From positions 1-48,879 of IMG/VR virus record IMGVR_UViG_3300033416_000009: 48,879 bases of DNA; one strand, written 5' to 3'. The number at the start of each line of letters is the position of its first letter. Positions within the stretch are counted from its first letter, which is position 1. Below the pieces are notes generated by a model. That model was not told the DNA's origin and made no database searches. It worked only from the letters and a program-made list of their open reading frames with translations. Below are positions 11,161-44,700 of the stretch, in pieces. A program made the translations under genes and the position numbers. Source of the DNA: a virus. Taxonomy: Duplodnaviria; Caudoviricetes.

Positions 11161-12639
11161 TCACGCCATGACCACAACCGGTTTCCTGGCCTTACCCGTC
11201 TTGATCGGGTTCTCCAGGAAATCGCGCGGGCTCTCAGCCAGGATCGGGTAAGTCATGGCGTCGAAGATGTGCTTGAACCTGGACGATCGGTCGACAAAGT
11301 TCGCCATGGTGTTCCCTTTCCGCAATCCTTTGAACATGGCCACTGTCTGCTCGCACAAGATCGACACCACCAGCCGGTCTTCGTAAAGCAGTTTCCTGGT
11401 CATGTTGATCCTGTCCCGGATGCTGTCCTTCCATTTGGGCGCAGCCACGAGCATGATCCTGCCCCGGCTGGAGACGTTGATCTGCATGTAATCGTAGATC
11501 TCTGCCGCCGGCCGGTACTGGTCGAACGAACTCTTGTCGCTCCAGTGCCGCCATTTGATGTCCTTGCCGATCTGGGCCTCCCAATAATCCATCTTTTCCA
11601 TGGCCATGTCGGTCAGATCGCTCAGGCTTATCTTTTGTTCCAGGATGACAATCTCATCCAGGACCTTGTAGATTAGCCTTCCCTTGCTCATGACCGGCTC
11701 GATGAACGATATGGCGTGGTTGATCGATCCGATGTCCCAGCCCGTGATCAGCTCGATGCAGTTCTCTTCCGGCAACAGAATGTCCCACTCTTCCTGCCTG
11801 GGCCCAGTCGCTTCCCCGATCACATGCAGGTCGCTGCGGAACACATCCGCGAAATGCGAGTTGGCCGATGACGATGTCCATTTGCCCTCGATATAGCGCG
11901 AGTACATGTCCGGGTCATGCCTGAATGTTGCCGTGAGAATGCTCCGCTCCTGCTCGCTCAAGAACGGGTTTTCCGGGATCATGACTTCGATCAGGCCAAG
12001 CTCATCCCGGAACTTCGGGTCGGCGTGATCGTCGTCCGCGCGCTCGCCGTACCACAGCTTGTAAATCCAGCTCAAATCCCCCTCGTCCGCCGGGTTGGTG
12101 TCACCCATCCATTGGTGGGCGGTGTAGGGCAGATGCACGCACCGGAGCTGGTCAATGGAGATGTCGAAAACCTTGCGCGACCTGAAATTGCTCAGCTCAT
12201 TGAACCAGATCATGCTGTAGCGTTTTCCCCTGATCACGGTCTCGATGTCGTCGTCGTAGTCCAGTGAGTTCAGCACGATCCGAGACACGGTCCCGTGCAC
12301 GTTGCTGACTTCGAAGTAGGTTTGCCTGGTCCGGCCGTCAACCTTCGGAGGGGTAACAATCGTCATCCCCATATCGGCCGGGATCCATTCCTGCATCAGG
12401 CTGTCCGTTAAATCGGTCCAGCAGCCGCCATCCACGGCCAGCTTGACGGTTTTGGCGAACACGCCCACCCTCGCCCGGTCGGTTTCCCAGGCGTGCCGGA
12501 GGACCTTGTCGGCGCACCCCAGGGTTTTCCCGGACTTTTTCGGGCCTGAAATCAGCAGGAACCGGTGGTAATCGTTGAAGATCTGCAGTTGCTTGACGCT
12601 GCTAATCGGAACCCAATAGCCTTCTGGACTGGTAGGCAT
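11161..12639 (-). CDS. terL: Terminase large subunit
   Basis: Walker A SGPKKSGKT; Walker B variant MIWFNE; motif III DTNP; ENPFL; RuvC-like nuclease motifs ITGWDIG and KHIFDAMTY. Confidence 0.92.
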   Translation of the reverse strand: MPTSPEGYWVPISSVKQLQIFNDYHRFLLISGPKKSGKTLGCADKVLRHAWETDRARVGVFAKTVKLAVDGGCWTDLTDSLMQEWIPADMGMTIVTPPKVDGRTRQTYFEVSNVHGTVSRIVLNSLDYDDDIETVIRGKRYSMIWFNELSNFRSRKVFDISIDQLRCVHLPYTAHQWMGDTNPADEGDLSWIYKLWYGERADDDHADPKFRDELGLIEVMIPENPFLSEQERSILTATFRHDPDMYSRYIEGKWTSSSANSHFADVFRSDLHVIGEATGPRQEEWDILLPEENCIELITGWDIGSINHAISFIEPVMSKGRLIYKVLDEIVILEQKISLSDLTDMAMEKMDYWEAQIGKDIKWRHWSDKSSFDQYRPAAEIYDYMQINVSSRGRIMLVAAPKWKDSIRDRINMTRKLLYEDRLVVSILCEQTVAMFKGLRKGNTMANFVDRSSRFKHIFDAMTYPILAESPRDFLENPIKTGKARKPVVVMA

Positions 12640-23816: not shown

Positions 23817-23835
23817 TGCCGGTGTTCGATTCTTG

Positions 23836-23869
23836 TTGATTTCGCTGCGGGGCGCGTCATTATTGCCGT
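23836..23869 (+). promoter_or_regulatory. Sigma70-like leaderless promoter for the glycosyltransferase operon
   Basis: TTGATT(23836-23841)-N16-CATTAT(23858-23863)-N6-ATG(23870). Confidence 0.55.
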
Positions 23870-23920
23870 ATGGCGCTCACTTTAAGCCATTCAACTTTGG
23901 ACCTGCGGGGAGCGGGATGA
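23870..23920 (+). CDS. Putative 16-aa leader peptide (MALTLSHSTLDLRGAG)
   Basis: ATG is at the leaderless position of the promoter; its TGA overlaps the GT4 start (ATGA, 23917-23920). Confidence 0.4.
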   Translation: MALTLSHSTLDLRGAG

Positions 23921-25014
23921 TCAGGCGCGTCACATTTTGCGGGGAAGTAAACACGTTCACCGGTTTCGGCCAGCATTCCATAGCCATCATGGAGAGCCTG
24001 GAAAAAAACGGGTTCTTCGCCTTGCTGCGCCCGTTCACATTCCACAGCGATCCGTCCAAGCGCGTCCCACCATGGATCATCGGCAGGATCGTGAAGAGCA
24101 TTCAGCCGGAACTTACCGAGGTGACCCTCAGCCCGATAATCTCAGAGCGGGTTCCGACAGTCGGCAAATACACCATCTACTTCACGATGTGGGAGAGCAC
24201 GCTGCTGCCCAAGCGGTTTGTCCAATTGCTGAACTCTTGCCAGCACGTTGTTGTCCCGTGCCAATGGTGCCGCGATACGTTCGTTGAATCCGGAGTCAAA
24301 AGGCCGATGGAAATTGTTCGGCTTGGATATGATCCGGATGTTTACAAGGTGAGCGAGCAGACTTTCGATGGCCCGTTCATTTTTGGAGCGGCAGGGAATC
24401 TCAGGAACGGCGTGACGCGCAAGGGAGTGTTGGATGTGATAGAGGCATTCAATCTGGCGTTCCCGAAAGACAAGGACGTAGTGCTATGCATAAAATGCGG
24501 CGATGGCGATGCCGTTGAATCTCTCCGGGATTACAGGGTTCACTTATGCAAGACATTCATGCCAGAGAAACGTTTAGCCGAATGGTATCGTGGCATAAAC
24601 TGCTTTGTCAGCGCCGCCAGGTCTGAAGGGTTCGGGCTCATGCAGCTGCAGGCAATGGCCACTGGCCGGCCGGTGATTGGCACTGGCTATTCCGGTATGG
24701 CTGAGTTCATGTCGGCGGATAATTCGTTCTTGCTGGAATACGACCTGGAAGATTCCCAGGAAGCGTGGCTAGGGTGCGGCCAGTGGGCCAGGCCGAGAAT
24801 GGATTGCCTGGTGGAGACCATGCGCTTCGTCAAATCCAACCCGGATAGAGTGCTGGCTAAATCCATAGCTGCCGGCAATTCAGTTTCCGGATTCACATGG
24901 GACGATGTTAACAAGCCGCTGATTGAATTGGTAAGTGAATATGAAAAGGCTGGTGCTAAGCGGAATGGTGAACAGTTACACGGGCTACAGCGAGCACCTG
25001 TTCCGTGTGGCTGA
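23917..25014 (+). CDS. Glycosyltransferase, GT4 family (GT-B fold)
   Basis: FTGFGQH, FTMWEST, RKG, SEGFGLMQLQAMATGRPVI. Start re-called at ATG 23917 with GGAG upstream. Confidence 0.9.
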   Translation: MIRRVTFCGEVNTFTGFGQHSIAIMESLEKNGFFALLRPFTFHSDPSKRVPPWIIGRIVKSIQPELTEVTLSPIISERVPTVGKYTIYFTMWESTLLPKRFVQLLNSCQHVVVPCQWCRDTFVESGVKRPMEIVRLGYDPDVYKVSEQTFDGPFIFGAAGNLRNGVTRKGVLDVIEAFNLAFPKDKDVVLCIKCGDGDAVESLRDYRVHLCKTFMPEKRLAEWYRGINCFVSAARSEGFGLMQLQAMATGRPVIGTGYSGMAEFMSADNSFLLEYDLEDSQEAWLGCGQWARPRMDCLVETMRFVKSNPDRVLAKSIAAGNSVSGFTWDDVNKPLIELVSEYEKAGAKRNGEQLHGLQRAPVPCG

Positions 25015-25969
25015 CTGGTTTGCCGGGCGCGGTCTGGAGGTTGTCATCCGCCCGTCCATGATCCGGGAACAGTTCGGTGCGGCCATACCGGACAGGATGG
25101 TCTCCATGGTATCACATGACATCCAGCCGGATCCTTGGGAAGTGATGATCAATTACCCGAATGCCAGGCCGACGAACGGGAAGCGGACAGTCTATTTCAC
25201 CATGTACGAGGCCACCCGGCTGCCGTCGATGTTCGTTGGATACCTGAACATGTGCCGGGCCATCATTGTGCCGTGCTCGTGGAACAGGGATTGGTTCAAG
25301 AAAGTCGGCGTCCGGCCTGGCATAAGCATCTGCCCCCTTGGAATTGACACCGGAACATTCAAGCACACACCGATGATCATGGACGGGCCAACCGTGTTCG
25401 GTGCCGCAGGCAGGCTGGCTCACGGCATCGCGCGCAAGGGTGTCAACGATGTGATCGACGCATTTAGGATAGCGTTCCCGTCGGATCCGAACGTCCGGCT
25501 CAGGATTAAGGCGTTCCCGGACTGCAAGCTCATCGAATACCGGGATCCGAGGATTGAGGTTGTCCGGGAGATGATGCCCGCGGATCGGCTTGCGGAATGG
25601 TTCTCAGGACTGACCTGTTTCTGCAGCATGGCCAAGGCCGAGGGGTGGGGCCTGATGCAGCAGCAAGCCATGGCTGTTGGCCGGCCCGTGATCGCATCGG
25701 TCTATGCCGGCCTGGCTGAGTTCATGAACCAGAACAATTCCTACCCGGTCACATTCAGGGAGGTTCGGGCGGTGGAGAAATATCGCGGGCACGGCAAATG
25801 GGCGCAGCCTGACCAGAGGCATTTCATATCCCTAATGCGAAAGGTGCACGCCAACAGGGCCGAGGCCGCCGAGATCGGAGCCAGGGCCAGCGCGGACGCA
25901 TCCAAATTCACCTGGGACGAGTCATGCCTGAAGCTGGAATCAATATTGGCGGCGCTAAATGTTATATGA
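24941..25969 (+). CDS. Glycosyltransferase, GT4 family (paralogue of the upstream gene)
   Basis: YTGYSEH, FTMYEAT, RKG, AEGWGLMQQQAMAVGRPVI. Confidence 0.9.
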   Translation: MKRLVLSGMVNSYTGYSEHLFRVADWFAGRGLEVVIRPSMIREQFGAAIPDRMVSMVSHDIQPDPWEVMINYPNARPTNGKRTVYFTMYEATRLPSMFVGYLNMCRAIIVPCSWNRDWFKKVGVRPGISICPLGIDTGTFKHTPMIMDGPTVFGAAGRLAHGIARKGVNDVIDAFRIAFPSDPNVRLRIKAFPDCKLIEYRDPRIEVVREMMPADRLAEWFSGLTCFCSMAKAEGWGLMQQQAMAVGRPVIASVYAGLAEFMNQNNSYPVTFREVRAVEKYRGHGKWAQPDQRHFISLMRKVHANRAEAAEIGARASADASKFTWDESCLKLESILAALNVI

Positions 25970-26676
25970 CAACGATCCCGGTTCTGGGAATACCAGTCTT
26001 GAATAGGCCGGACCTGATCAGGAAATGCATCGACTCCATTGATCATCCGGTTGGCACAATTGCCGTGATCAATAACAGCAAAGACATAGGCATGACCAAC
26101 ATGCTGAAGAGGATATGCCGGAAACACAGGAACGTTCGCGTAATCAACAATCCAAAAAACGCCGGGGTCGGAGGGTCGTGGAACCAGATCTTCAGGACGT
26201 TCAGCGCACCATGGTGGTTCATTGTGGGCAGCGACATACGGTTCGAGAGAGGATCAATTGCCAAGATCGTGCGCGAAGTCGAGGTTCACCCGGAATCGGT
26301 CCTCTATTTCGCCAATGGATTCAGCGCGTTTGTCATCACCAGTAGATGCCTGGACATCATTGGAACATTCGATGAAAACTACTATCCGGCATACCTGGAG
26401 GACTGCGATTATTTCCGCAGGTTTCAACTATCCGGAACAGAAGCCAGGCATATTCCGGAAATACGGATGGAGCACGTAGGGAGCGCCACGATTAGAAGCA
26501 ATCCTGAACTGCAAAGGAAAAACGGAATCACACACACCGAAAACTGGGTGTATCACCGAGCCAAATGGGGTGATCCTGCGCAGTTCAAGACCCCGTTCAA
26601 TGACCCCAATCTGACTATCAAGGATTGGACATTGGACCAGGAAAGAAGGGCGCGCCAGGATTGGGACAACCTGTGA
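25966..26676 (+). CDS. Glycosyltransferase, GT2 family (GT-A fold)
   Basis: IPVLNR...CIDSID, NAGVGGSWN, GTFDENYYPAYLEDCDY; ATGA-coupled start at 25966. Confidence 0.85.
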   Translation: MTTIPVLGIPVLNRPDLIRKCIDSIDHPVGTIAVINNSKDIGMTNMLKRICRKHRNVRVINNPKNAGVGGSWNQIFRTFSAPWWFIVGSDIRFERGSIAKIVREVEVHPESVLYFANGFSAFVITSRCLDIIGTFDENYYPAYLEDCDYFRRFQLSGTEARHIPEIRMEHVGSATIRSNPELQRKNGITHTENWVYHRAKWGDPAQFKTPFNDPNLTIKDWTLDQERRARQDWDNL

Positions 26677-27425
26677 CTATCGCCGTCATAACAATCTGCA
26701 GGAACGAGGGCTATCTGATGCCTCATTTCCTGAGACATTACGAGCGGTTCGCGGACGAGATTCATGTCTGGGACGAGCAGAGCACGGATGGGACAAGGGA
26801 GGCCATAGCCGGATGCAATAAAGCCTTCCTGCACGAATGGACCGCAAAAGGATTCGACGACTTTGTCCGCCTGGAGTTCTGCCACGAAATCAGAAACAAG
26901 TTCCTCTCGTTCGACTGGACGATCTGGCCGGATGTGGACGAGTTCATCTATGCCGACAATGTTCAGGAAAAGCTTTTGGGAGGAATGAACCCGCATTACG
27001 GCCTGCCCAGAGTTGTTGGATATCAGATGCTGTGGGACGGTGAACTGCCAATCTCCCAGCAGATAACGGAAGTCATCCGATCTGGTGTCCGGGATGAAAT
27101 CTACGACAAGCCAATCATCATCCCGGCTTTCTCGAACATCGCGTGGTATCCCGGGAAACACAGACTGAAACCGCTGTCGAAGCACTTTGATTACCCGGCA
27201 TGGATGGGCCCGGAACATCTCGCCTTAAGGCTGCTCCATTACAGGTTCTTGGGTGAGGAATACTTCAAAACCAGAAACGCCAAGAACTTTTCCAGGTTCA
27301 CGAACCGGGAGATGGACGCCCACAGGAGGCAGAAAGTCGGATGGCACGTTGCCCCGGATCACAAGGGGAAATACGACCTGGACTGGTATCGGGAGAATTT
27401 GAAGCTGGCCAAACCGGTGATCTGA
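26673..27425 (+). CDS. Glycosyltransferase, GT2-like (Glyco_tranf_2_4 type)
   Basis: CRNEGYLMPHFLRHY, DEQSTDGT, DVDEF (DxD), LLHYRF; GTGA-coupled start at 26673. Confidence 0.85.
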   Translation: MTIAVITICRNEGYLMPHFLRHYERFADEIHVWDEQSTDGTREAIAGCNKAFLHEWTAKGFDDFVRLEFCHEIRNKFLSFDWTIWPDVDEFIYADNVQEKLLGGMNPHYGLPRVVGYQMLWDGELPISQQITEVIRSGVRDEIYDKPIIIPAFSNIAWYPGKHRLKPLSKHFDYPAWMGPEHLALRLLHYRFLGEEYFKTRNAKNFSRFTNREMDAHRRQKVGWHVAPDHKGKYDLDWYRENLKLAKPVI

Positions 27426-33621: not shown

Positions 33622-34859
33622 AAACCTACGATATAGAGGGCAGGTTCATGGTCAGCGGAGGAACGGCTGGAGCACCTGGCCCGCAAGGTTTGCCTGGCAG
33701 CCCCGGTGGTCTTCCTGGAGGCATCACTGCGCTTTATGTTTTCAGAACTGACACTTTTGGGACAACGGCCAACGGTGAGATCATGTTCGACAATGCCACG
33801 CTGTCGTCTGTGGCTGTAATATACGTCGACGATCACGACCGAAACGACGACGACATGAGCGCGATGCTGGAGCTGTTCGATGTTGGGGATTATATAAAGG
33901 TGTTCGTTGAGGGCGACTCCACGCAATGGGCCATCTTCAGGGTTGAAGCCAACACGGATGACGGGGATAGGTTCATCTACGACGTGACATTCATTGCCGG
34001 ATCGGACAGCTGGAGCGATGGGAGCGATATCGGCCTGACATGGTGCGAGAAAGGCGACAAGGGCGATCAGGGCGATATGGGCTATCAGGGGTATGTTGGG
34101 CCCCAAGGTTTTGTTGGACCCCAAGGCGACCGCGGTTATCAAGGTTATGTCGGGCCGCAAGGGGATCGCGGGTACCAAGGGTTCACGGGTCCTCAAGGGG
34201 ATCGCGGATATCAGGGAGACCGTGGTTATCAGGGGTTCACTGGGCTACAGGGCATTCCTGGACCGCAAGGATTCTCCGGGATTGAAGGCAGCGAGGGTCC
34301 AGTCGGTCCGCAGGGTCTACCGGGAGATACTGGGCCTCAGGGGATTGCCGGGACAGGGGCTGGGCTGGCTGGTTACGCTTATGTCCGGCTGCTAGCGCAA
34401 CAGATCATTGGGTCGGGATCGTGGGTGACTGTTGAATTCCCGATGGATGATGGGTATGCGTCCGAATTCAGCCCGGGGGACGAGACCGGATGGATCCAAT
34501 GTGACCTGGCTGTTTCATCAATGGTTCATGTTCAAGCCAGTGTTACGTTCACCTATCATTCCAGCGGGATAAGGATGCTGCGGATCATACACGGAAAGAA
34601 CCTCGCCCCGAACACATGGAGCATACGTGAAATCGGCCGCGCTTACTTCGAAGTTCCGGCCCTGGACGCAGATGAAGAAGACCCAACACTGACAGTCAGC
34701 GCATCCGTTCCTGACATGGTATTCCCGGATTTCGTTTACATCCAGGCATGGCAGAACACTGGCAGCGAACTTACTCTCCAGATAACAGATGACATGGGCG
34801 TGCAGAGTTCAATGCTTGCCAGCAGTTCCGTAACGGTATTGGGGTTCAGCACCGTATGA
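33618..34859 (+). CDS. Collagen-like fibre protein with a C-terminal beta (C1q/BclA-like) head
   Basis: 34 contiguous G-X-Y triplets followed by a beta-rich C-terminal domain. Confidence 0.8.
34053..34358 (+). repeat. Collagen G-X-Y repeat (34 triplets; GDR-GYQ-GxV/T-GPQ units)
   Basis: Read directly from the translation. Confidence 0.9.
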
Positions 34860-36118
34860 AGCCGTCGGTGTTCACCCCGGTTCATTCCAGGAGCGAACAA
34901 TTCGTGGCGGATGCATATCAAAGCCTGCTGCGTCAAACCTTTCAAGATTGGCAATGGATTATTGGGCTCAATGGCGGGGCGTCTGATGTGGCTAAGGAGA
35001 TTCGAGATGACCGAAGGGTGCGGGTTGTGCGGCTTGAGGATGACAGCAACGCCAGCGGCCATAACTGCATTGGGCGGCTCAAGAGAGAATTGTGCGCGCT
35101 GGCGTCTGGGGATGTCCTGGTTGAACTTGACGCGGACGATATCCTGACCGAGAAAGCAATCGAATCCGTCCTGGAAGCGTTCAGCCGTGACGCGGTTCAG
35201 ATGGCTTACAGCAACAGCGCCCAGTTCGAGGATAAGACCTGGAAACCGAGTAGTTACAGCCGGCACTGGGGATGGGTCAGCCGTCCGTTTGTCTGGCATG
35301 AACGTGGCCTGATCGAGCTGGTTGCCTGGCCGCCAAGCCCGCACATGATGCGTCAGATTTACTGGGCCCCGAACCATGTCCGAGCCTGGAGAAGATCTGG
35401 CTACGATGATGTTGGAGGCCACACTGCAATGGAGGTGGCGGACGATCACGATCTGTGCTGCCGATTGTATTGCAGGCACGGATCTGCTGGATTCAAGCAC
35501 CTGGACGAATGCCTTTACCTCTACCGGATGCACCCGGAAAACACCGCCAAAACGAACAATGGCCTGATCCAGAAAATGGCGGCCAGGAACTACCTCAAGT
35601 ACGTCGGGGCAATGGCGGAACGATGGGCCCTGGATTGCGGGCTGTCGCTTTTGGATCTTGGCGGAAGGATCAACCCGCAGCATGGATACGCGACGGTTGA
35701 TGTTTCGGATGCAGACATTGAATGCGACCTGACCAAGCCGTGGCCGATCGCGGATGATTCAGTTGGCGTTCTGCGGGCGCATCATGTCCTTGAGCATTTG
35801 CCGGATCCGATCCACGCCATGAATGAAGCCTACCGCGTTCTTGCTCCGGGAGGATGGATGTTCGTCGAGGTCCCATGCGCTCTCGGCCAGGGCGCGTTCC
35901 GTGATCCGACCCACAAAAGCTTCTGGGTGCAGCAGTCGTTTTTGTACTATACGAACAAGGAATACGCGAAATACATACAGCCACAATATCGAGGCAGATT
36001 CCAGGTCAGCAGGTCTGAGCGTTACATGATGCAGCCCGATGTTCCCGTGATAGCCGCGGAACTGATCTGCCTCAAGCCGCCTTACTCTCTGCGCCCAGTT
36101 GGGGAAGTGTTGATCTAG
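34856..36118 (+). CDS. GT2 glycosyltransferase fused to a class I SAM-dependent methyltransferase
   Basis: GT2: SVFTPVH, QTFQDWQWII, ELDADD, ADDHDL. MTase: LLDLGG, HVLEHL, EAYRVLAPGG, DPTH. Confidence 0.88.
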   Translation: MKPSVFTPVHSRSEQFVADAYQSLLRQTFQDWQWIIGLNGGASDVAKEIRDDRRVRVVRLEDDSNASGHNCIGRLKRELCALASGDVLVELDADDILTEKAIESVLEAFSRDAVQMAYSNSAQFEDKTWKPSSYSRHWGWVSRPFVWHERGLIELVAWPPSPHMMRQIYWAPNHVRAWRRSGYDDVGGHTAMEVADDHDLCCRLYCRHGSAGFKHLDECLYLYRMHPENTAKTNNGLIQKMAARNYLKYVGAMAERWALDCGLSLLDLGGRINPQHGYATVDVSDADIECDLTKPWPIADDSVGVLRAHHVLEHLPDPIHAMNEAYRVLAPGGWMFVEVPCALGQGAFRDPTHKSFWVQQSFLYYTNKEYAKYIQPQYRGRFQVSRSERYMMQPDVPVIAAELICLKPPYSLRPVGEVLI

Positions 36119-38766: not shown

Positions 38767-41700
38767 GTGCCAAATCCATTTGATTCCGTATTCGAATCGT
38801 TGCCGGACCTGCAGCCGGGTGGGGCCGCCAATGTTCAGGCACTGCCCAGCGCGTGGCCTGTCAGAACTGCCGCTGGAGAACCTGAAAAGGACTTCGAAGG
38901 GCCAGGCAAATACCAGTGGACACCAGACGAGAAGAAGCAGCGCACGGATCTGATCCGAACCATCGTCTCCAACATTCCAAAGGCCATTGTCAGCCCGGCA
39001 TCAGCGGCGACCGATATAGGGTTGGCCATGGCCAGGGAAAGGATGGGATTGCCGGTTGCCCCGCCTGCTCTGGGCGTGAAAAGCGTCATTGGTGCCAGGC
39101 GCAGATTCTATGTGCCCGAGCCGGAGGTTGAGCCGAGCAAGACTGGATTCTTCGCTGGACTTGTCGGGGCTGGGGAACGCGGTTACGAATACGGAAGGGA
39201 AGTCGGCGAGGTTGAGCAGGCAGTCAGTGGGCCAACGACCGATGTCATGCAGAAGCTCGGGGTGCTTGAGCGGGAGATGAGCAACATTCCTCCGACACAA
39301 TCATACATCGATTTCGCAACAGCTAAAAGTCCAGGGCAGATGATGAATGCCTTGGCTAGTGATCCGGTTGGAATTCTCGGCCAGCTATTGATCGAGAGCA
39401 CAGCGATGTGGATCCGGCCGTTCATCAAGAAAGGTGTCGTCCCGGCTTTGGGCGGAATGGCCTTAGGCGGAATCATCGGGGCAATGACCAGGTTCGGCGC
39501 TGGCGCTGGAGCGAGGCTTGGGTTGCGGGCCGGAATGTCGTTGGGGGCCGGCATAACGTCGTTTTCATTGGAGCGCGCCGGGAAGATAATGGAAGTGCTC
39601 CAGCAGATGGGCTATGACACGACCGATCCCGAACAGCTGATGTCTGCGTTCACGGACAAGGACGTGATGGCTGAAGCCAAAAGGTTGGGGCTGCTGAAAG
39701 GTTTGCCGATCGCGGCGTTCGATGCTGCATCAACAGCGTTCGGTGGAATGTTTGCTTCCAGGGCAAAAACCGCTCTTGGCAGGGTTGCGAGGTTCGGCGG
39801 TGAAATGATGGCCGGCGGCGGGCTGGGAGGATTAGGTGAGGCAGCTGGCGAATGGGCGTCCGGGGAAGAGCTGCGGGCTGGGCCGATTGGAGCCGAGGTT
39901 GCCGCCGACATCGCCGCACAAGGACTTCGGTCTGGGGTCGGGATGGCCATTGGAGTTAGTGGAATTCGAGGCAGAGGAACAACTGGGCGGCTTTTCGGAC
40001 AACGTCCCGCCACAACACGCACAGGTACTACTCAAGGCGCAGCACTCCCGCCACCAATACCTACCGCGGCGGAGATACAGGAGACTCCGCAGGAACCGAC
40101 TATCGCCCAGCCTCTGCCGGAAACAACCGCAGCCGCCCCAGCTGAGCCGCCATTGCCAACTCCGGAGGAACCTGCTTTCCGTGATCCTACCCCGGCAGAG
40201 TTCGAGGCCAGCTCATTCGTGACGGAGGATGACACCCAGTATTTGATGTTGCCGGACGGCAGTGGACGCGCGCGCCGTGTCACCATAGTCAACGGCCTGC
40301 CGTCCCAGCGATCCACGACATCCAGGACGATATTCATCGGGAGCAACATCGCAAAATGGCTGAAGGGATGGCTGGCGCTTCCCCCGGAAAGATTGGCCAA
40401 GCTCGGGTTCAACATGGATTGGGCCGAGGCTGTTACTGAACCGGCAAAGGAGGGGAAACCGGCCACAATCCAGGAAGTGCTGAGCGTTTGGGGCAGGGAA
40501 AAGCCTGGCGCTCCAGTCAAGAAAACGAATGTCTTGTTCGATAACTCACCGAAACCTGGGTGGGTGGCGCTGAACTTCGACGAAGAGGGAGTGCCGTCTG
40601 TCGGTGATGCAGTCAGGAATCCCAGCGATGCAAACGGCCGGGCTAAACCGATCTTCTTCGGCAGTGCTCCGGCGCAACCAACAGGAGTGCCAAGTGATCA
40701 GACGACTCAAGGGCGGCCGGTGCCAGGTGGTGTCCAGCAAAGGGCGAAACCTGGGAACGTACCGCAGCCTCAAGGCGTGCCGGAACAGGCTCAGGCAGGT
40801 GGAATACTTCAAACACCAGAAGAAATAGCGGCCTATGATCCAGCCCAGTTCGCGGCCTGGGTAAAGACTCTTCCGGAAAGCCTGCAGCGGATGTCGATTC
40901 GGCTGGGCAGAGCACTGGGTCCGGCGGCTGCGGATAGACTGCGCTCTCTGGCGACGGCGGCTGATGCGCAAATGCAGGCTGTGATGGCCTCAAAAGATAC
41001 ACAAGCCATCCAGGACGCGATGCAGAAGCCCCAGTTCTTCCGGGAAGCAGCGGAGGTTGCCAGCGGAAAACTGAGCCCCGGGATGCAGAAGATCGTCGAC
41101 ATGTACGATGCTGAAGTGGCGGCCAGGACTGCTGTTCCAGCACCACCGCCAGCGCCAGCTCCATTGCGGACTGTTCCAGAGAAACTGACCAGGAACGTGG
41201 CGCGCAGGATGAGCAAGAACCAGTTGGCAGCCGAGCTTCGATCCAGGGGAATTGCGGATATCGACGGGATCAACCTGTTCAACTTCGACGCGCAAACCCT
41301 GCTTCAAACACTGCTGCCCATGCTTCCGGAAGCTGCGGCTGTCAGACCTGGACCAGCCGTGGCGACTACCGGATTGAACACCGAATCGATCCTGGGAGCT
41401 GACCGGCAAACATTGTTGAATGAGCTGGATTTTGTCGGGATTACCCATGCCGTAACCAAGGTCGTTCCGATCGCTGGAGGGCTGCGCACTGGGGTTGCTG
41501 AATTTACCACGACAGAACCTGGGGCTGCCGCGGAATCCGCCATTCCAGTCGAGCAGCTGGACGACGATTCATTGCGCGCGCTTCTTTTTTCCAGAACACC
41601 GCCCAACATACAGCGCATTGTTCGCGGCATGTCCCCGGATCTGGCCTTCAGGATACTGGTGGCATCCGGGGTTACGGATCAGGCGATGCTTAGGGATGCG

Positions 41701-44700
41701 GCCAGGGGATCTCTGTCTGCTGCCATGGAGTGGGACGATGCGCGCATGACGGGCGAACCAATCCAGGCAGCTCTGGCTCAACCTCCGTCCCCTGCGGCGG
41801 CACCAGCTCCAGCTCCCGCCCCAACAATTCCGCGACCTGTCCCGGCACCCAAACCTGTCAAACCGGCCCCAGTCAAACCTCCGCCTCCTCCGCCACCAGC
41901 TCCTACAGCTCCCGAAATTGCAGTTGCCAAGCCAAAGCCCAAACCCAAGCCGGCTCCGACAACGGGTCTGCGGGCTGCTCCGGGCAAGACTGGGACCAGA
42001 GCTTTGATGCCCAAGGAAAAGGCAGCAGCCAAAGCCGCGGCTCCAGTCAAACCCAAGGCTGCCGCTCCAGCCAAAGCGCCTACAACTCAGGCTCCGCCAG
42101 TCGCAGCAAAGCCAGCCGAACCGCCCACCGCCGAGCAAAAGGCTGCCAAGAAACGGAATGATGAGGAGAGGAAGCGGCACAAATCGACGATGGATGTTCT
42201 GGCGCGCAGGGCAGGAACAAAGCCGGCCGGGGTTGTAAATGACCGCGCCATCCTGCATAAGCGTTCCGATCCTACTGGTGAATTCATCTGGATCCGAAAA
42301 GCACAGGACGGAGTTCGCTGGCTGGTATCCAAGTTCACGCCAGACAAAAAGACCGGAGCATCCCAGGAACATTCGGCCGGCAGACAGTTCCATGACAGCT
42401 GGGAAATGGCGTTTCGATCCGCGATAGGCGACCTGGATAAATCTGTCGGCACCAAGGAGTTCACCAGCATCAAACGCGGCCCACCCTCGGTGAAGATGAG
42501 TTGGGGCATGCTCCATGACGGGTCCGAATCGACCAGGGCCACGACTGCCGCCGAAGCTGCCGCCGAAGCCGCCAAACCCGAAGGTAAAATCCGGGGGGTC
42601 GTTGCCGGGCCTAAAAAAAAAGTCATCCGTCCGCGGGTAAATCGGGTAGTCGAACCAAATAGCAACCTGGCCCTGAACCCGGACGAGGATTTCCACCGCT
42701 TGGGGAATGGCAAGTTCTGGTTCTCCATTGCCGGCCTTGGATTCAACATCGAGCAGGAACGGCAGCAATCAACTTGGACGGTCAGGCCGGCGGAGCGGGA
42801 TCCAAACATCAAGCCGGGTGATCCCATCGAGAAAGGCAGGGTTTACCAGACAACTGAGCAGGCCCGGGACGCCATCCGCCAGTACGTGGCCAGCCTTCGC
42901 GCCAAGAGCACCATCCAGCCCGCGCGCGCGCCAACCCTGACGCCCCCCGGGAAACACACGCTCATCTCGGAAGCCAAAGCTTGGGCGGACTGGTACAACA
43001 ATTACATCGCCAAGAACGCCAGGCTGCCGACCGTTGCTGAAGTCAGGCGGAATGTTCTTGGGCCTGACAGTGAACGGAAGAAGCTGACTCCGGTTATTGC
43101 TGAAGCCAAGATGCAGGCCGCGATAGAGATCGGCATCCGGATGCGGGGCGAGCCGAGCATGTCACCTCCGGACGTTGGATATCATTACGGGGACGGAGGT
43201 GTAGCTAGCGACACAAAAGCGAGCAGGATGGATTCAGGTAGGTCTACTGGGCATTTCGGAACAGGAACATACTTCCTTGGAAAACCGATAGATCCAAAAA
43301 CCGACTTCAATCCACGCAGTAACAGACCTGTCATGGTAATGGATCTTTCTGGGTTAACAATGCTCAGGCCGAAGACGTCCCAGGATGCGATGAATCTTCA
43401 TGATGGGCTGAAGGAATTCAACCGTGCGGTTTGGTCCGGAGCTAAACAGGATTTCGATACACCCACATCCGGGTGGAGCAAAGCACTTTCCAGGGTATGG
43501 ATTTCGATTCCGGGACTTACGATCAGCAAGGATACAATTGCGGACGCTATGCGATCTGTGGCCGCTGTATTCGCCAATAATATTCAAGATGGACTGAGAA
43601 CGCCGTCGACCTATCTGGTGCAAAAATTGGGATTCAACGGAATAGATGTCAGGGGGACAGATCTTGATAACACAGCTTACGGAAGCGTAATATTTGTTGG
43701 TGATGTAAGGGAATCGAATGAGCCAAGGTTTCCAGCGACCGGCGAGATTAGACTGCCAACGCTGCCAAGCAAACTTCCGGAGGGATCAGAATCGTCTACT
43801 AGGCCAACTGAGGAAGGGATCATGTACCTGGTCCGGCAACTTCCGCACGATTCGCGCCGTGTTTTCGAAGCATTGATCGGCACGCCCATGTTCGGGATGA
43901 TCGACAAGAATAAACTGCGTCTTGCCCTTATCCCGGGTAGTGGCGGCCGAACACAGAACCTTGGCTGGATCGTGGATGTGGTTGTGGGTAAACAGGCTGA
44001 TCCCGAAATAGCGCCGCACGAAATCTCCCACGTCATTTTCGACCTGATGCAGGACAGGGACAAGCGCAGGATCGAGACGCTCAGGCAGAAAGAGATCAAC
44101 CGCCAGCTGGAACGCGCCGACATATATCCGCAGGCAAAAGACATCCTGCGATCGTGGATCAACGGACCGATATCATCCCAGGCATTCAAAGATATCAATG
44201 CGCCCAGGGAGTTCTACCACCTGATCAATGCCACCGAATTCCTGGCTGCGTTCTTCGGCAAGAAATTCGCGGACGACATCCTGTCGCGGGAGACGGAGAC
44301 GGACACAGTCACACTTTACGATCGTGTGACGGACATACTGCGTGCTCTATGGGACTGGATCAGTCGGGCACTCGGGGTTCACAGCATGGACAGCGTATTC
44401 CGCAACATGTTGGAAGGAAAGTATCTGAACACTGTTAGAGGTGGCATTGCTGGCGAAGTACGATACGGTCTTGGCCAGGCCATCACCCAGATCAACACGA
44501 TGGAGGAAGAGGGCGTGTATTCCGGCGAGGAGAAAGCGATCGCATTAGCCAACCTACGGCTCCAGCAGGTCGCAGAACCGCTCGCACAACTCGGGATGGT
44601 CCAAGATGGTGTCGGCACATGGCTGGCTGTCCTGGCTCAAAAGAACGAGAAAGGCGACGTGCGGCTGACCGGTGAAGCTCTTGAGGAAATGCGCAGGTTG

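Follow-up and report, generated by a model that had tools for sequence, protein, structure and literature searches.

A small open reading frame buried inside a giant phage gene raises three questions: whether it is a gene at all, how two proteins came to share one piece of DNA, and what the smaller of them might do. The locus discussed here lies in a 48.9-kb phage contig (48,879 nucleotides, referred to as the window), which encodes terminase, tail fibre, virion and glycosyltransferase genes and ends within a giant ORF. Judged from sequence comparison, the 44-codon gene nested in this giant is real, conserved and recurrent, and is neither a spanin nor a newly born overprint. The features concerned are collected in Table 1.

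Table 1. Features of the window and of comparable loci, with positions and the basis on which each was recognised.
Feature	Position	Strand	Basis or remark
Giant ORF, 3371 aa, open at contig end	38767..48879	+	last gene of virion-gene cluster
Gly/Ala-rich N-terminal domain of giant, aa 229-393	39451..39945	+	common to 8 MPFKS-bearing giants
Shine-Dalgarno-like AGGAG	40683..40687	+	6 nt before GTG
Nested 44-aa basic gene, +1 frame	40694..40828	+	homologues, family alignment, predicted three-strand plus helix fold
"Shadow" linker: overlap as read by the giant, aa 643-688, rich in Gln, Pro and Gly	40693..40830	+	composition, shadow profile
MPFKS-type nested genes, +1 frame of homologous giants	L297-L374, L433-L466 (e.g. 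L346:8001-8126)		equivalent slot
Further +1-frame ORF in giant, 128 aa	39836..40222		SD-like word 5 nt before GTG
Putative ADP-ribosyltransferase-like motifs, near giant aa 1472-1627	~43180-43650		
HExxH motif, giant aa 1751	44017..44031		
Terminase large subunit gene	11161..12639	-	opposite to neighbouring virion genes
Four consecutive glycosyltransferase genes and a glycosyltransferase-methyltransferase fusion	23833-27425, 34856-36118		among tail genes

The nested gene and its giant host

The initial annotation had placed an AGGAG six nucleotides ahead of GTG 40694 and read from that start a 44-aa product in the +1 frame; coordinates and product proved exact. The ORF closes with TAG at 40826-40828, and its start and stop both fall within the other-frame ORF on the same strand. 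The product is strongly basic, with 14 Lys/Arg residues against a single Asp/Glu and a net charge of about +13. The Shine-Dalgarno word, described as strong, has the right letters and spacing and is supportive, but it is weak evidence for a gene when taken alone, since 5 of the giant's 21 AGGAG/GGAGG words are followed by a start at a distance of 5-9 nt; a strong Shine-Dalgarno is absent at most of the 24 other starts inspected in this genome. Contigs from four DNA runs contain the small gene without variants, with one short foreign piece over its 3' end; a search for RNA runs containing the sequence listed none.

The full-length form of the giant, found in P0007, has 3526 aa. Tail fibre, virion structural and terminase matches upstream give it a late virion-gene setting, and from its gene position and from homologous giants it is likely an internal or ejected virion protein. 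Pfam and PHROG searches with the giant, whole and in pieces, gave no match; PF18796 is present in a distant homologue, and no close relative of the N-terminal part was found in the viral collection. The HExxH motif is presumably zincin-like, and the motifs near aa 1472-1627, which have no Pfam match, may be ADP-ribosyltransferase-like; the region of aa 1458-1670 is common to two other giants (L355 and L374). In the overlap with the nested gene, the giant has 9 Gln, 7 Pro and 7 Gly among 46 residues. Its earlier description as a disordered Gln/Pro/Gly linker holds for composition and low hydrophobicity, while the word disordered follows from composition and not from a disorder predictor.

For the further 128-aa ORF in the giant, no recurring family was seen among the compared loci. 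Elsewhere in the window, the minus-strand terminase gene runs against its neighbours, and the presence of glycosyltransferase genes among tail genes suggests possible virion glycosylation.

A widespread family of small basic proteins

The claim that the nested ORF is a gene had been made to depend in part on stand-alone homologues, and five were found, at 56-65% identity (E 3e-7 to 4e-4). Stretches encoding relatives numbered 118 in the viral, 515 in the metagenome and 141 in the genome sets; 80 stretches were fetched from each, and two DNA patterns, built to suit nesting, added 56 viral matches. The resulting 242 unique hits comprise 208 small ORFs and 34 in-frame domains or otherwise not small ORFs. 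With 181 free copies among them, the suggestion of the initial annotation that small basic proteins of this kind are widespread is borne out. GTG 40694 falls exactly on the first codon of this family and all 9 of its 9 invariant columns are retained, which, together with the five homologues and the relatives in many stretches, argues that the 44-mer is not a chance ORF. Two residues that are near-invariant among 223 sequences, Tyr10 and Ala29, are both replaced by Cys in the window copy, and the same joint replacement recurs in two free copies (L016 and L096).

Seventy-nine of the free copies lie in bacterial genome assemblies, mostly of Acidobacteriota, beside ordinary cellular genes. Dozens of these Acidobacteriota chromosomal copies (L163-L241) have varied non-phage surroundings, and one locus (L241) has two copies. 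A free, unannotated copy is also present in the cultured Aeromonas phage 1233 (OR359403.1 54724-54852; L081:10001-10129).

Searches of Pfam, PHROGs and NCBIfam returned nothing significant that would name the 44-mer, a PDB sequence search gave no match, and the ESM Atlas held unnamed clusters only. Matches to a phage RNA-ligase region (E 0.04-0.06) were treated as chance. A literature search at the level of titles and listings found neither the family nor the nested-in-giant architecture described.

Recurrent nesting in the +1 frame

The family recurs inside other giant genes, whose alternative frames the initial annotation had proposed to scan: counting the window's own, 26 distinct copies are fully enclosed by ORFs of 606-4149 aa, and the frame is +1 every time. 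Nested copies make up 8 of the 70 unique hits of the viral scan, whose design did not favour nesting, 1 of 81 in the genome scan and 18 of 45 in the pattern scans. Left out of the count were short or edge overlaps (L039, L044, L052, L050, L069), an uncertain case in a 336-aa host (L267), and four free copies for which the +1 frame, although open, closes no more than 49 codons downstream. All 26 retain a stop and an ATG or GTG start, which always coincides with the first position of the family. Sixteen have an SD-like word ahead of the start; among the ten copies without one, nine, of one low-GC lineage, are mostly A-rich upstream.

These starts bear on the possibility that the small frame is entered by a +1 frameshift, which would end a shorter form of the giant with the domain, much as in-frame fusions do elsewhere. 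Such a reading could draw on the 34 of 242 hits that do not form small ORFs, in-frame domains among them, and on the +1 frame of the window, which is open for 40 codons upstream of GTG 40694. Yet an in-frame stop lies within 20 codons upstream in 20 of the 26 nested copies, the median upstream open stretch is 8.5 codons, and no RNA structure stable above shuffles is predicted around the window's nested gene (z 0.05). Upstream stops and kept starts together argue against a frameshift fusion, and this explanation appears hardly credible.

Several hosts of nested copies carry the polyvalent domains LPD38, InPase, PBECR3, an SNO-type helicase plus methylase, and ART-PolyVal; GNAT or beta-clamp domains also occur, and most hosts have no Pfam match. 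Along the giants, hydrophobicity is lowest in the bin that contains the giant-frame shadow of the small gene (0.165 vs 0.283). A profile of this shadow matched 302 protein clusters at E 0.001 (1.84 billion representatives, 50% identity clusters), known from protein alone and including some loci already in the nested set; among the best 150 of these, 109 are at least 1000 aa long and 128 have the diagnostic four-residue motif. The earlier suggestion that linkers of polyvalent proteins may harbour hidden genes thus gains 26 loci, the shadow clusters and a second family (see below), with polyvalence established for related hosts only.

The exclusive use of the +1 frame needs no common origin, since across the 181 free copies the +1 host frame is open in 43 and the +2 frame in none, 200 of 208 starts having the form xTGA. 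As to a single or a multiple origin of nesting, a quick tree search on 46 columns required 12 changes for the nested copies, of which well-supported branches force only 2. Database searches found no cultured phage carrying a nested copy.

Selection and the age of the two frames

Among 13 nested pairs of less than 15% divergence, differences run at 0.08, 0.037 and 0.23 at positions 1, 2 and 3 of the small gene, and amino-acid change amounts to 7.8% in the small protein against 26.5% in the giant frame. In nine host pairs, differences at position 3 of the giant frame fall from 0.32-0.57 upstream (170-300 codons) to 0.00-0.07 in the overlap, which indicates that selection switches there to the small gene. 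Purifying selection on the inner frame is thus seen in relatives, most of which belong to a single lineage whose 14 or so sequences are not independent; no diverged close relative of the window phage was found in the viral collection or in the DNA-run contigs. Giants fetched by the host domain alone contain the gene in 16 of 17 loci, the 17th ending before the site; eight of the 16 are seeds, and all five distinct non-seed loci that reach the site carry the gene.

The small gene had been described as overprinted inside the giant. Its nesting in a linker stands, but the direction is probably backwards: the small frame carries the constraint and the giant's linker evolves freely, so that the small gene is probably the older frame and the linker the overprint. 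A gene born by overprinting should be confined to the lineage of its host gene and lack free homologues, and here the free and in-frame hits make up most of the family. Capture of a pre-existing gene is the origin that such a pattern would suggest. Capture would also be easy, because the -1 reading of the gene is often stop-free and linker-like, the other frame being blocked by xTGA at the start. A comparison of the giants with genes beside free copies, made for signs of a read-through fusion, yielded no match and does not separate insertion from engulfment.

A silent relic, or conservation of the DNA itself (for instance as a recombination site) with no protein made, would be in keeping with a sharply bounded island of DNA that begins with the start codon and ends with the stop, between flanks that are otherwise unrelated, with the GTG start, and with the two near-invariant residues changed in the window copy. 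It is nevertheless highly improbable, as changes concentrate at the wobble positions of the small gene and both altered residues are cysteines that occur together in free copies. We consider translation of the nested gene very probable.

A shared slot and a possible hinge

P0009, a distant homologue of the window's giant, has a different motif in its linker; this motif, with its likeness to a common phage protein, led to a second family of small basic proteins, with the start MPFKS, unrelated to the first (probability 0.4%). Its 76 unique copies with long flanks divide into 29 lying at least 100 codons inside large ORFs, 18 near ORF starts and 29 free, and they show the same wobble pattern as the first family. 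Seventeen of the 18 near-start copies are in ORFs of about 400 aa and one (L325) is in an upstream extension of a terminase gene; neither L325 nor L296, which is one of the 29 in large ORFs and looks spurious, is counted as nested. The hosts of about 400 aa form an unnamed family of acidic proteins in low-GC phages, in which the MPFKS gene lies 36-65 codons in (L304:2598-2732, L309:1242-1364 and 15 similar loci), and PHROG and Pfam scans of three and two of them, respectively, found no match.

The domain at aa 229-393 is common to the window's giant and eight MPFKS-bearing giants, and in 9 of 9 the nested gene follows 120-249 aa downstream (249 aa in the window giant vs 120-224 aa in the other eight). 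Of 33 distinct giants fetched by this domain, 26 carry MPFKS (21 of 28 without seeds) and 7 carry neither family. A first-family locus (L245) and an MPFKS locus (L358) share 69% identity over 59 aa starting from, or just past, the end of the nested gene. Since MPFKS, the first family or neither is found at the equivalent site, the slot can hold either gene or none. The two families never shared a locus (among 292 and 120 loci of at most 20 kb), and the motif of the other family occurred in 0 of 109 shadow-bearing giants; this mutual absence is suggestive only. In L467, a giant with neither family, a very Arg/Lys-rich 43-codon +1 ORF lies about 775 codons past the domain match, possibly a third family or a product of chance.

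The contents of the slot also weigh on the idea that the small protein serves the enclosing giant as a dedicated partner or chaperone, as Rz1 serves Rz. Co-expression with the giant is automatic, and in one lineage a single slot is kept across 37-77% host divergence. However, the host flanks are unalignable in most pairs (median DNA identity over 77 pairs of 85% in the nested gene, 48% upstream and 44% downstream), homologous giants have an unrelated protein or none, and 181 copies exist free of any giant, which makes a dedicated partnership very unlikely.

The limits of homology between nested loci are often the start and stop codons of the small gene. In one pair (L254:9900-10034 and L266:9900-10034) the upstream DNA is unrelated and the small gene partly diverged, and from the last ~40 bases of the nested gene onward the two loci are near-identical, as a crossover inside the nested gene would give. 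It is tempting to hypothesize that the nested gene, around which the rest of the linker is hypervariable while it alone is conserved as DNA, serves as a crossover point for swapping modules of the giant, a suggestion to be held tentatively because linkers vary anyway. More doubtful is the fuller picture, in which a cassette slot after the N-terminal domain would accept interchangeable, unrelated basic +1 head proteins, with the nested gene doubling as a recombination hinge.

Fold and possible function

The 44-mer is predicted to form three strands and one helix (pLDDT 91.7). Its structural neighbours are YaiA (Z 5.5), the AP2/GCC-box domain (Z 5.0, rmsd 2.5, 44 aligned), the arm-binding domain of lambda integrase (Z 4.4, rmsd 2.6, 44 aligned) and YegP/DUF1508 (Z 4.4-4.8); all Z scores are below 6 and tied with unrelated folds, and a Foldseek search of the PDB gave no match at E 0.001. 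The model has the three-stranded sheet on one helix that is typical of the AP2 and integrase arm-binding topology, a generic arrangement. Profile searches with 51 family members matched Arm-DNA-bind_4 once (E 0.17), DUF6316 in 8 and DUF2188 in 6 cases, the latter two at E 0.003 or weaker.

Fusions connect the domain with head genes. In cultured siphoviruses it opens the prohead protease (L470:3001-3129, L469:4001-4135): the annotated protease of Yersinia phage P400 begins with it in frame, as does the corresponding Salmonella phage Vi II-E1 gene directly before the decoration and capsid genes (38-40 bits), and by tblastn the prohead-protease link was seen at about 50% identity, with 100 records matched, 18 of them Escherichia records. 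The annotated start of the Vi II-E1 gene is probably 26 codons too early. Other in-frame fusions are to MuF (2 of 22 scanned) and DUF2213 (1 of 22), and the domain matches XkdF-containing models. Immediate neighbours of free viral copies belong in 12 of 83 cases to terminase, T7-type portal ("head-tail adaptor") or scaffold families; the remainder mostly have no family, and some are lysis genes.

Cysteines are rare in the family: they occur in aligned columns of 9 of 223 sequences, always as one of two fixed pairs, and none of the nine comes from a cell genome (p 0.02); a lone Cys lying outside these columns occurs in one sequence. Such pairing hints at an oxidising environment and would be in keeping with exposure of the protein to air once the cell lyses. 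Together with the prohead-protease N-terminus they point to a head protein, and we infer, as an even prospect, a late, head-associated basic protein, either an internal basic protein or a head-targeting module ending in the virion. Against a pure head protein speak the copies in bacterial assemblies, and against a head role the predicted fold, which matches DNA-binding domains as well as anything.

The main rival reading is that the gene is real and translated but that its product binds nucleic acid as a small regulator within the infected cell and not in the head. The net charge, the likeness to the AP2/GCC-box and lambda integrase arm-binding folds, and the many chromosomal copies outside obvious prophage are in its favour, but those folds score no better than unrelated ones and have no Foldseek counterpart, the fusions and neighbours point to head genes, and the paired cysteines suggest an oxidising place; a regulator seems unlikely, although head and nucleic-acid-binding roles are compatible with each other.

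The account that we favour, as reasonably probable, is that the nested gene yields a basic protein acting in the phage head and that the giant reads the same DNA as a flexible linker. On late mRNA the gene would be translated from its own ribosome-binding site, the small basic product would act inside the head, and the giant frame would read the overlap as a predicted flexible linker. The gene itself would have existed beforehand and been captured by insertion or read-through fusion.

Significance

Nested small genes escape gene callers, and the 302 clusters imply that a second, conserved protein is likely concealed in hundreds of giant phage genes, where its shadow gives it away. The case illustrates how an overlap may come about when an old gene is taken in as a linker and no new gene is born, in which case the usual constraint is reversed. 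The family provides a testable handle on a very widespread, undescribed 44-residue domain, one that is present on the prohead protease of cultured siphoviruses, as well as a possible mechanism by which polyvalent proteins become mosaic.

Comparison with known systems

The closest phage precedent in layout is lambda Rz1, embedded in Rz; passages of PMC6139136 that treat this case also discuss origin by stop-codon read-through and disorder-rich new frames. In both systems the small gene is complete and is read +1 relative to the larger phage gene that encloses it. Rz1, as portrayed in those passages, is a lipoprotein partner of its host-gene product in lysis, whereas the 44-mer has no lipobox, hydrophobic segment or hydrophobic leader and no spanin family match in Pfam and PHROG searches. 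Its hosts, moreover, are varied, the gene also occurs free or as an in-frame domain, and its slot takes an unrelated gene. Another parallel is comS in srfAB of Bacillus subtilis, according to portions of PMC12915044 a tiny other-frame gene within a giant, co-expressed with it and having a separate job. That is one chromosomal case inside an enzyme gene, whereas the 44-aa family nests in many phage giants, in a linker that evolves freely. The likeness to Rz1 and comS is one of layout only.

At the level of the domain, the AP2/GCC-box, integrase arm-binding, YaiA and YegP/DUF1508 structures have the same predicted topology over 42-44 residues (Z 4.4-5.5), but with 9-12% identity, no sequence match and shorter strands in the 44-mer, their functions are not transferable. 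The N-terminal domain of Vi II-E1- and P400-like prohead proteases belongs by profile to the same family, but lies in frame; it is known by database annotation, and no described function was found for it.

The host class of related nested copies is that of the phage polyvalent proteins (Iyer et al. 2017, PMC5512222): several hosts carry the domains described in the accessible text of that work and sit among virion genes, and the small domain is itself fused to MuF-type proteins. In the main text of the same paper the words "overlapping" and "linker" do not occur and "nested" is used only of a hairpin fold; its external supplements could list the domain. What sets the case apart from Rz1 and comS is a conserved family, also occurring free, that is nested repeatedly in phage giants and comes with a functional lead.
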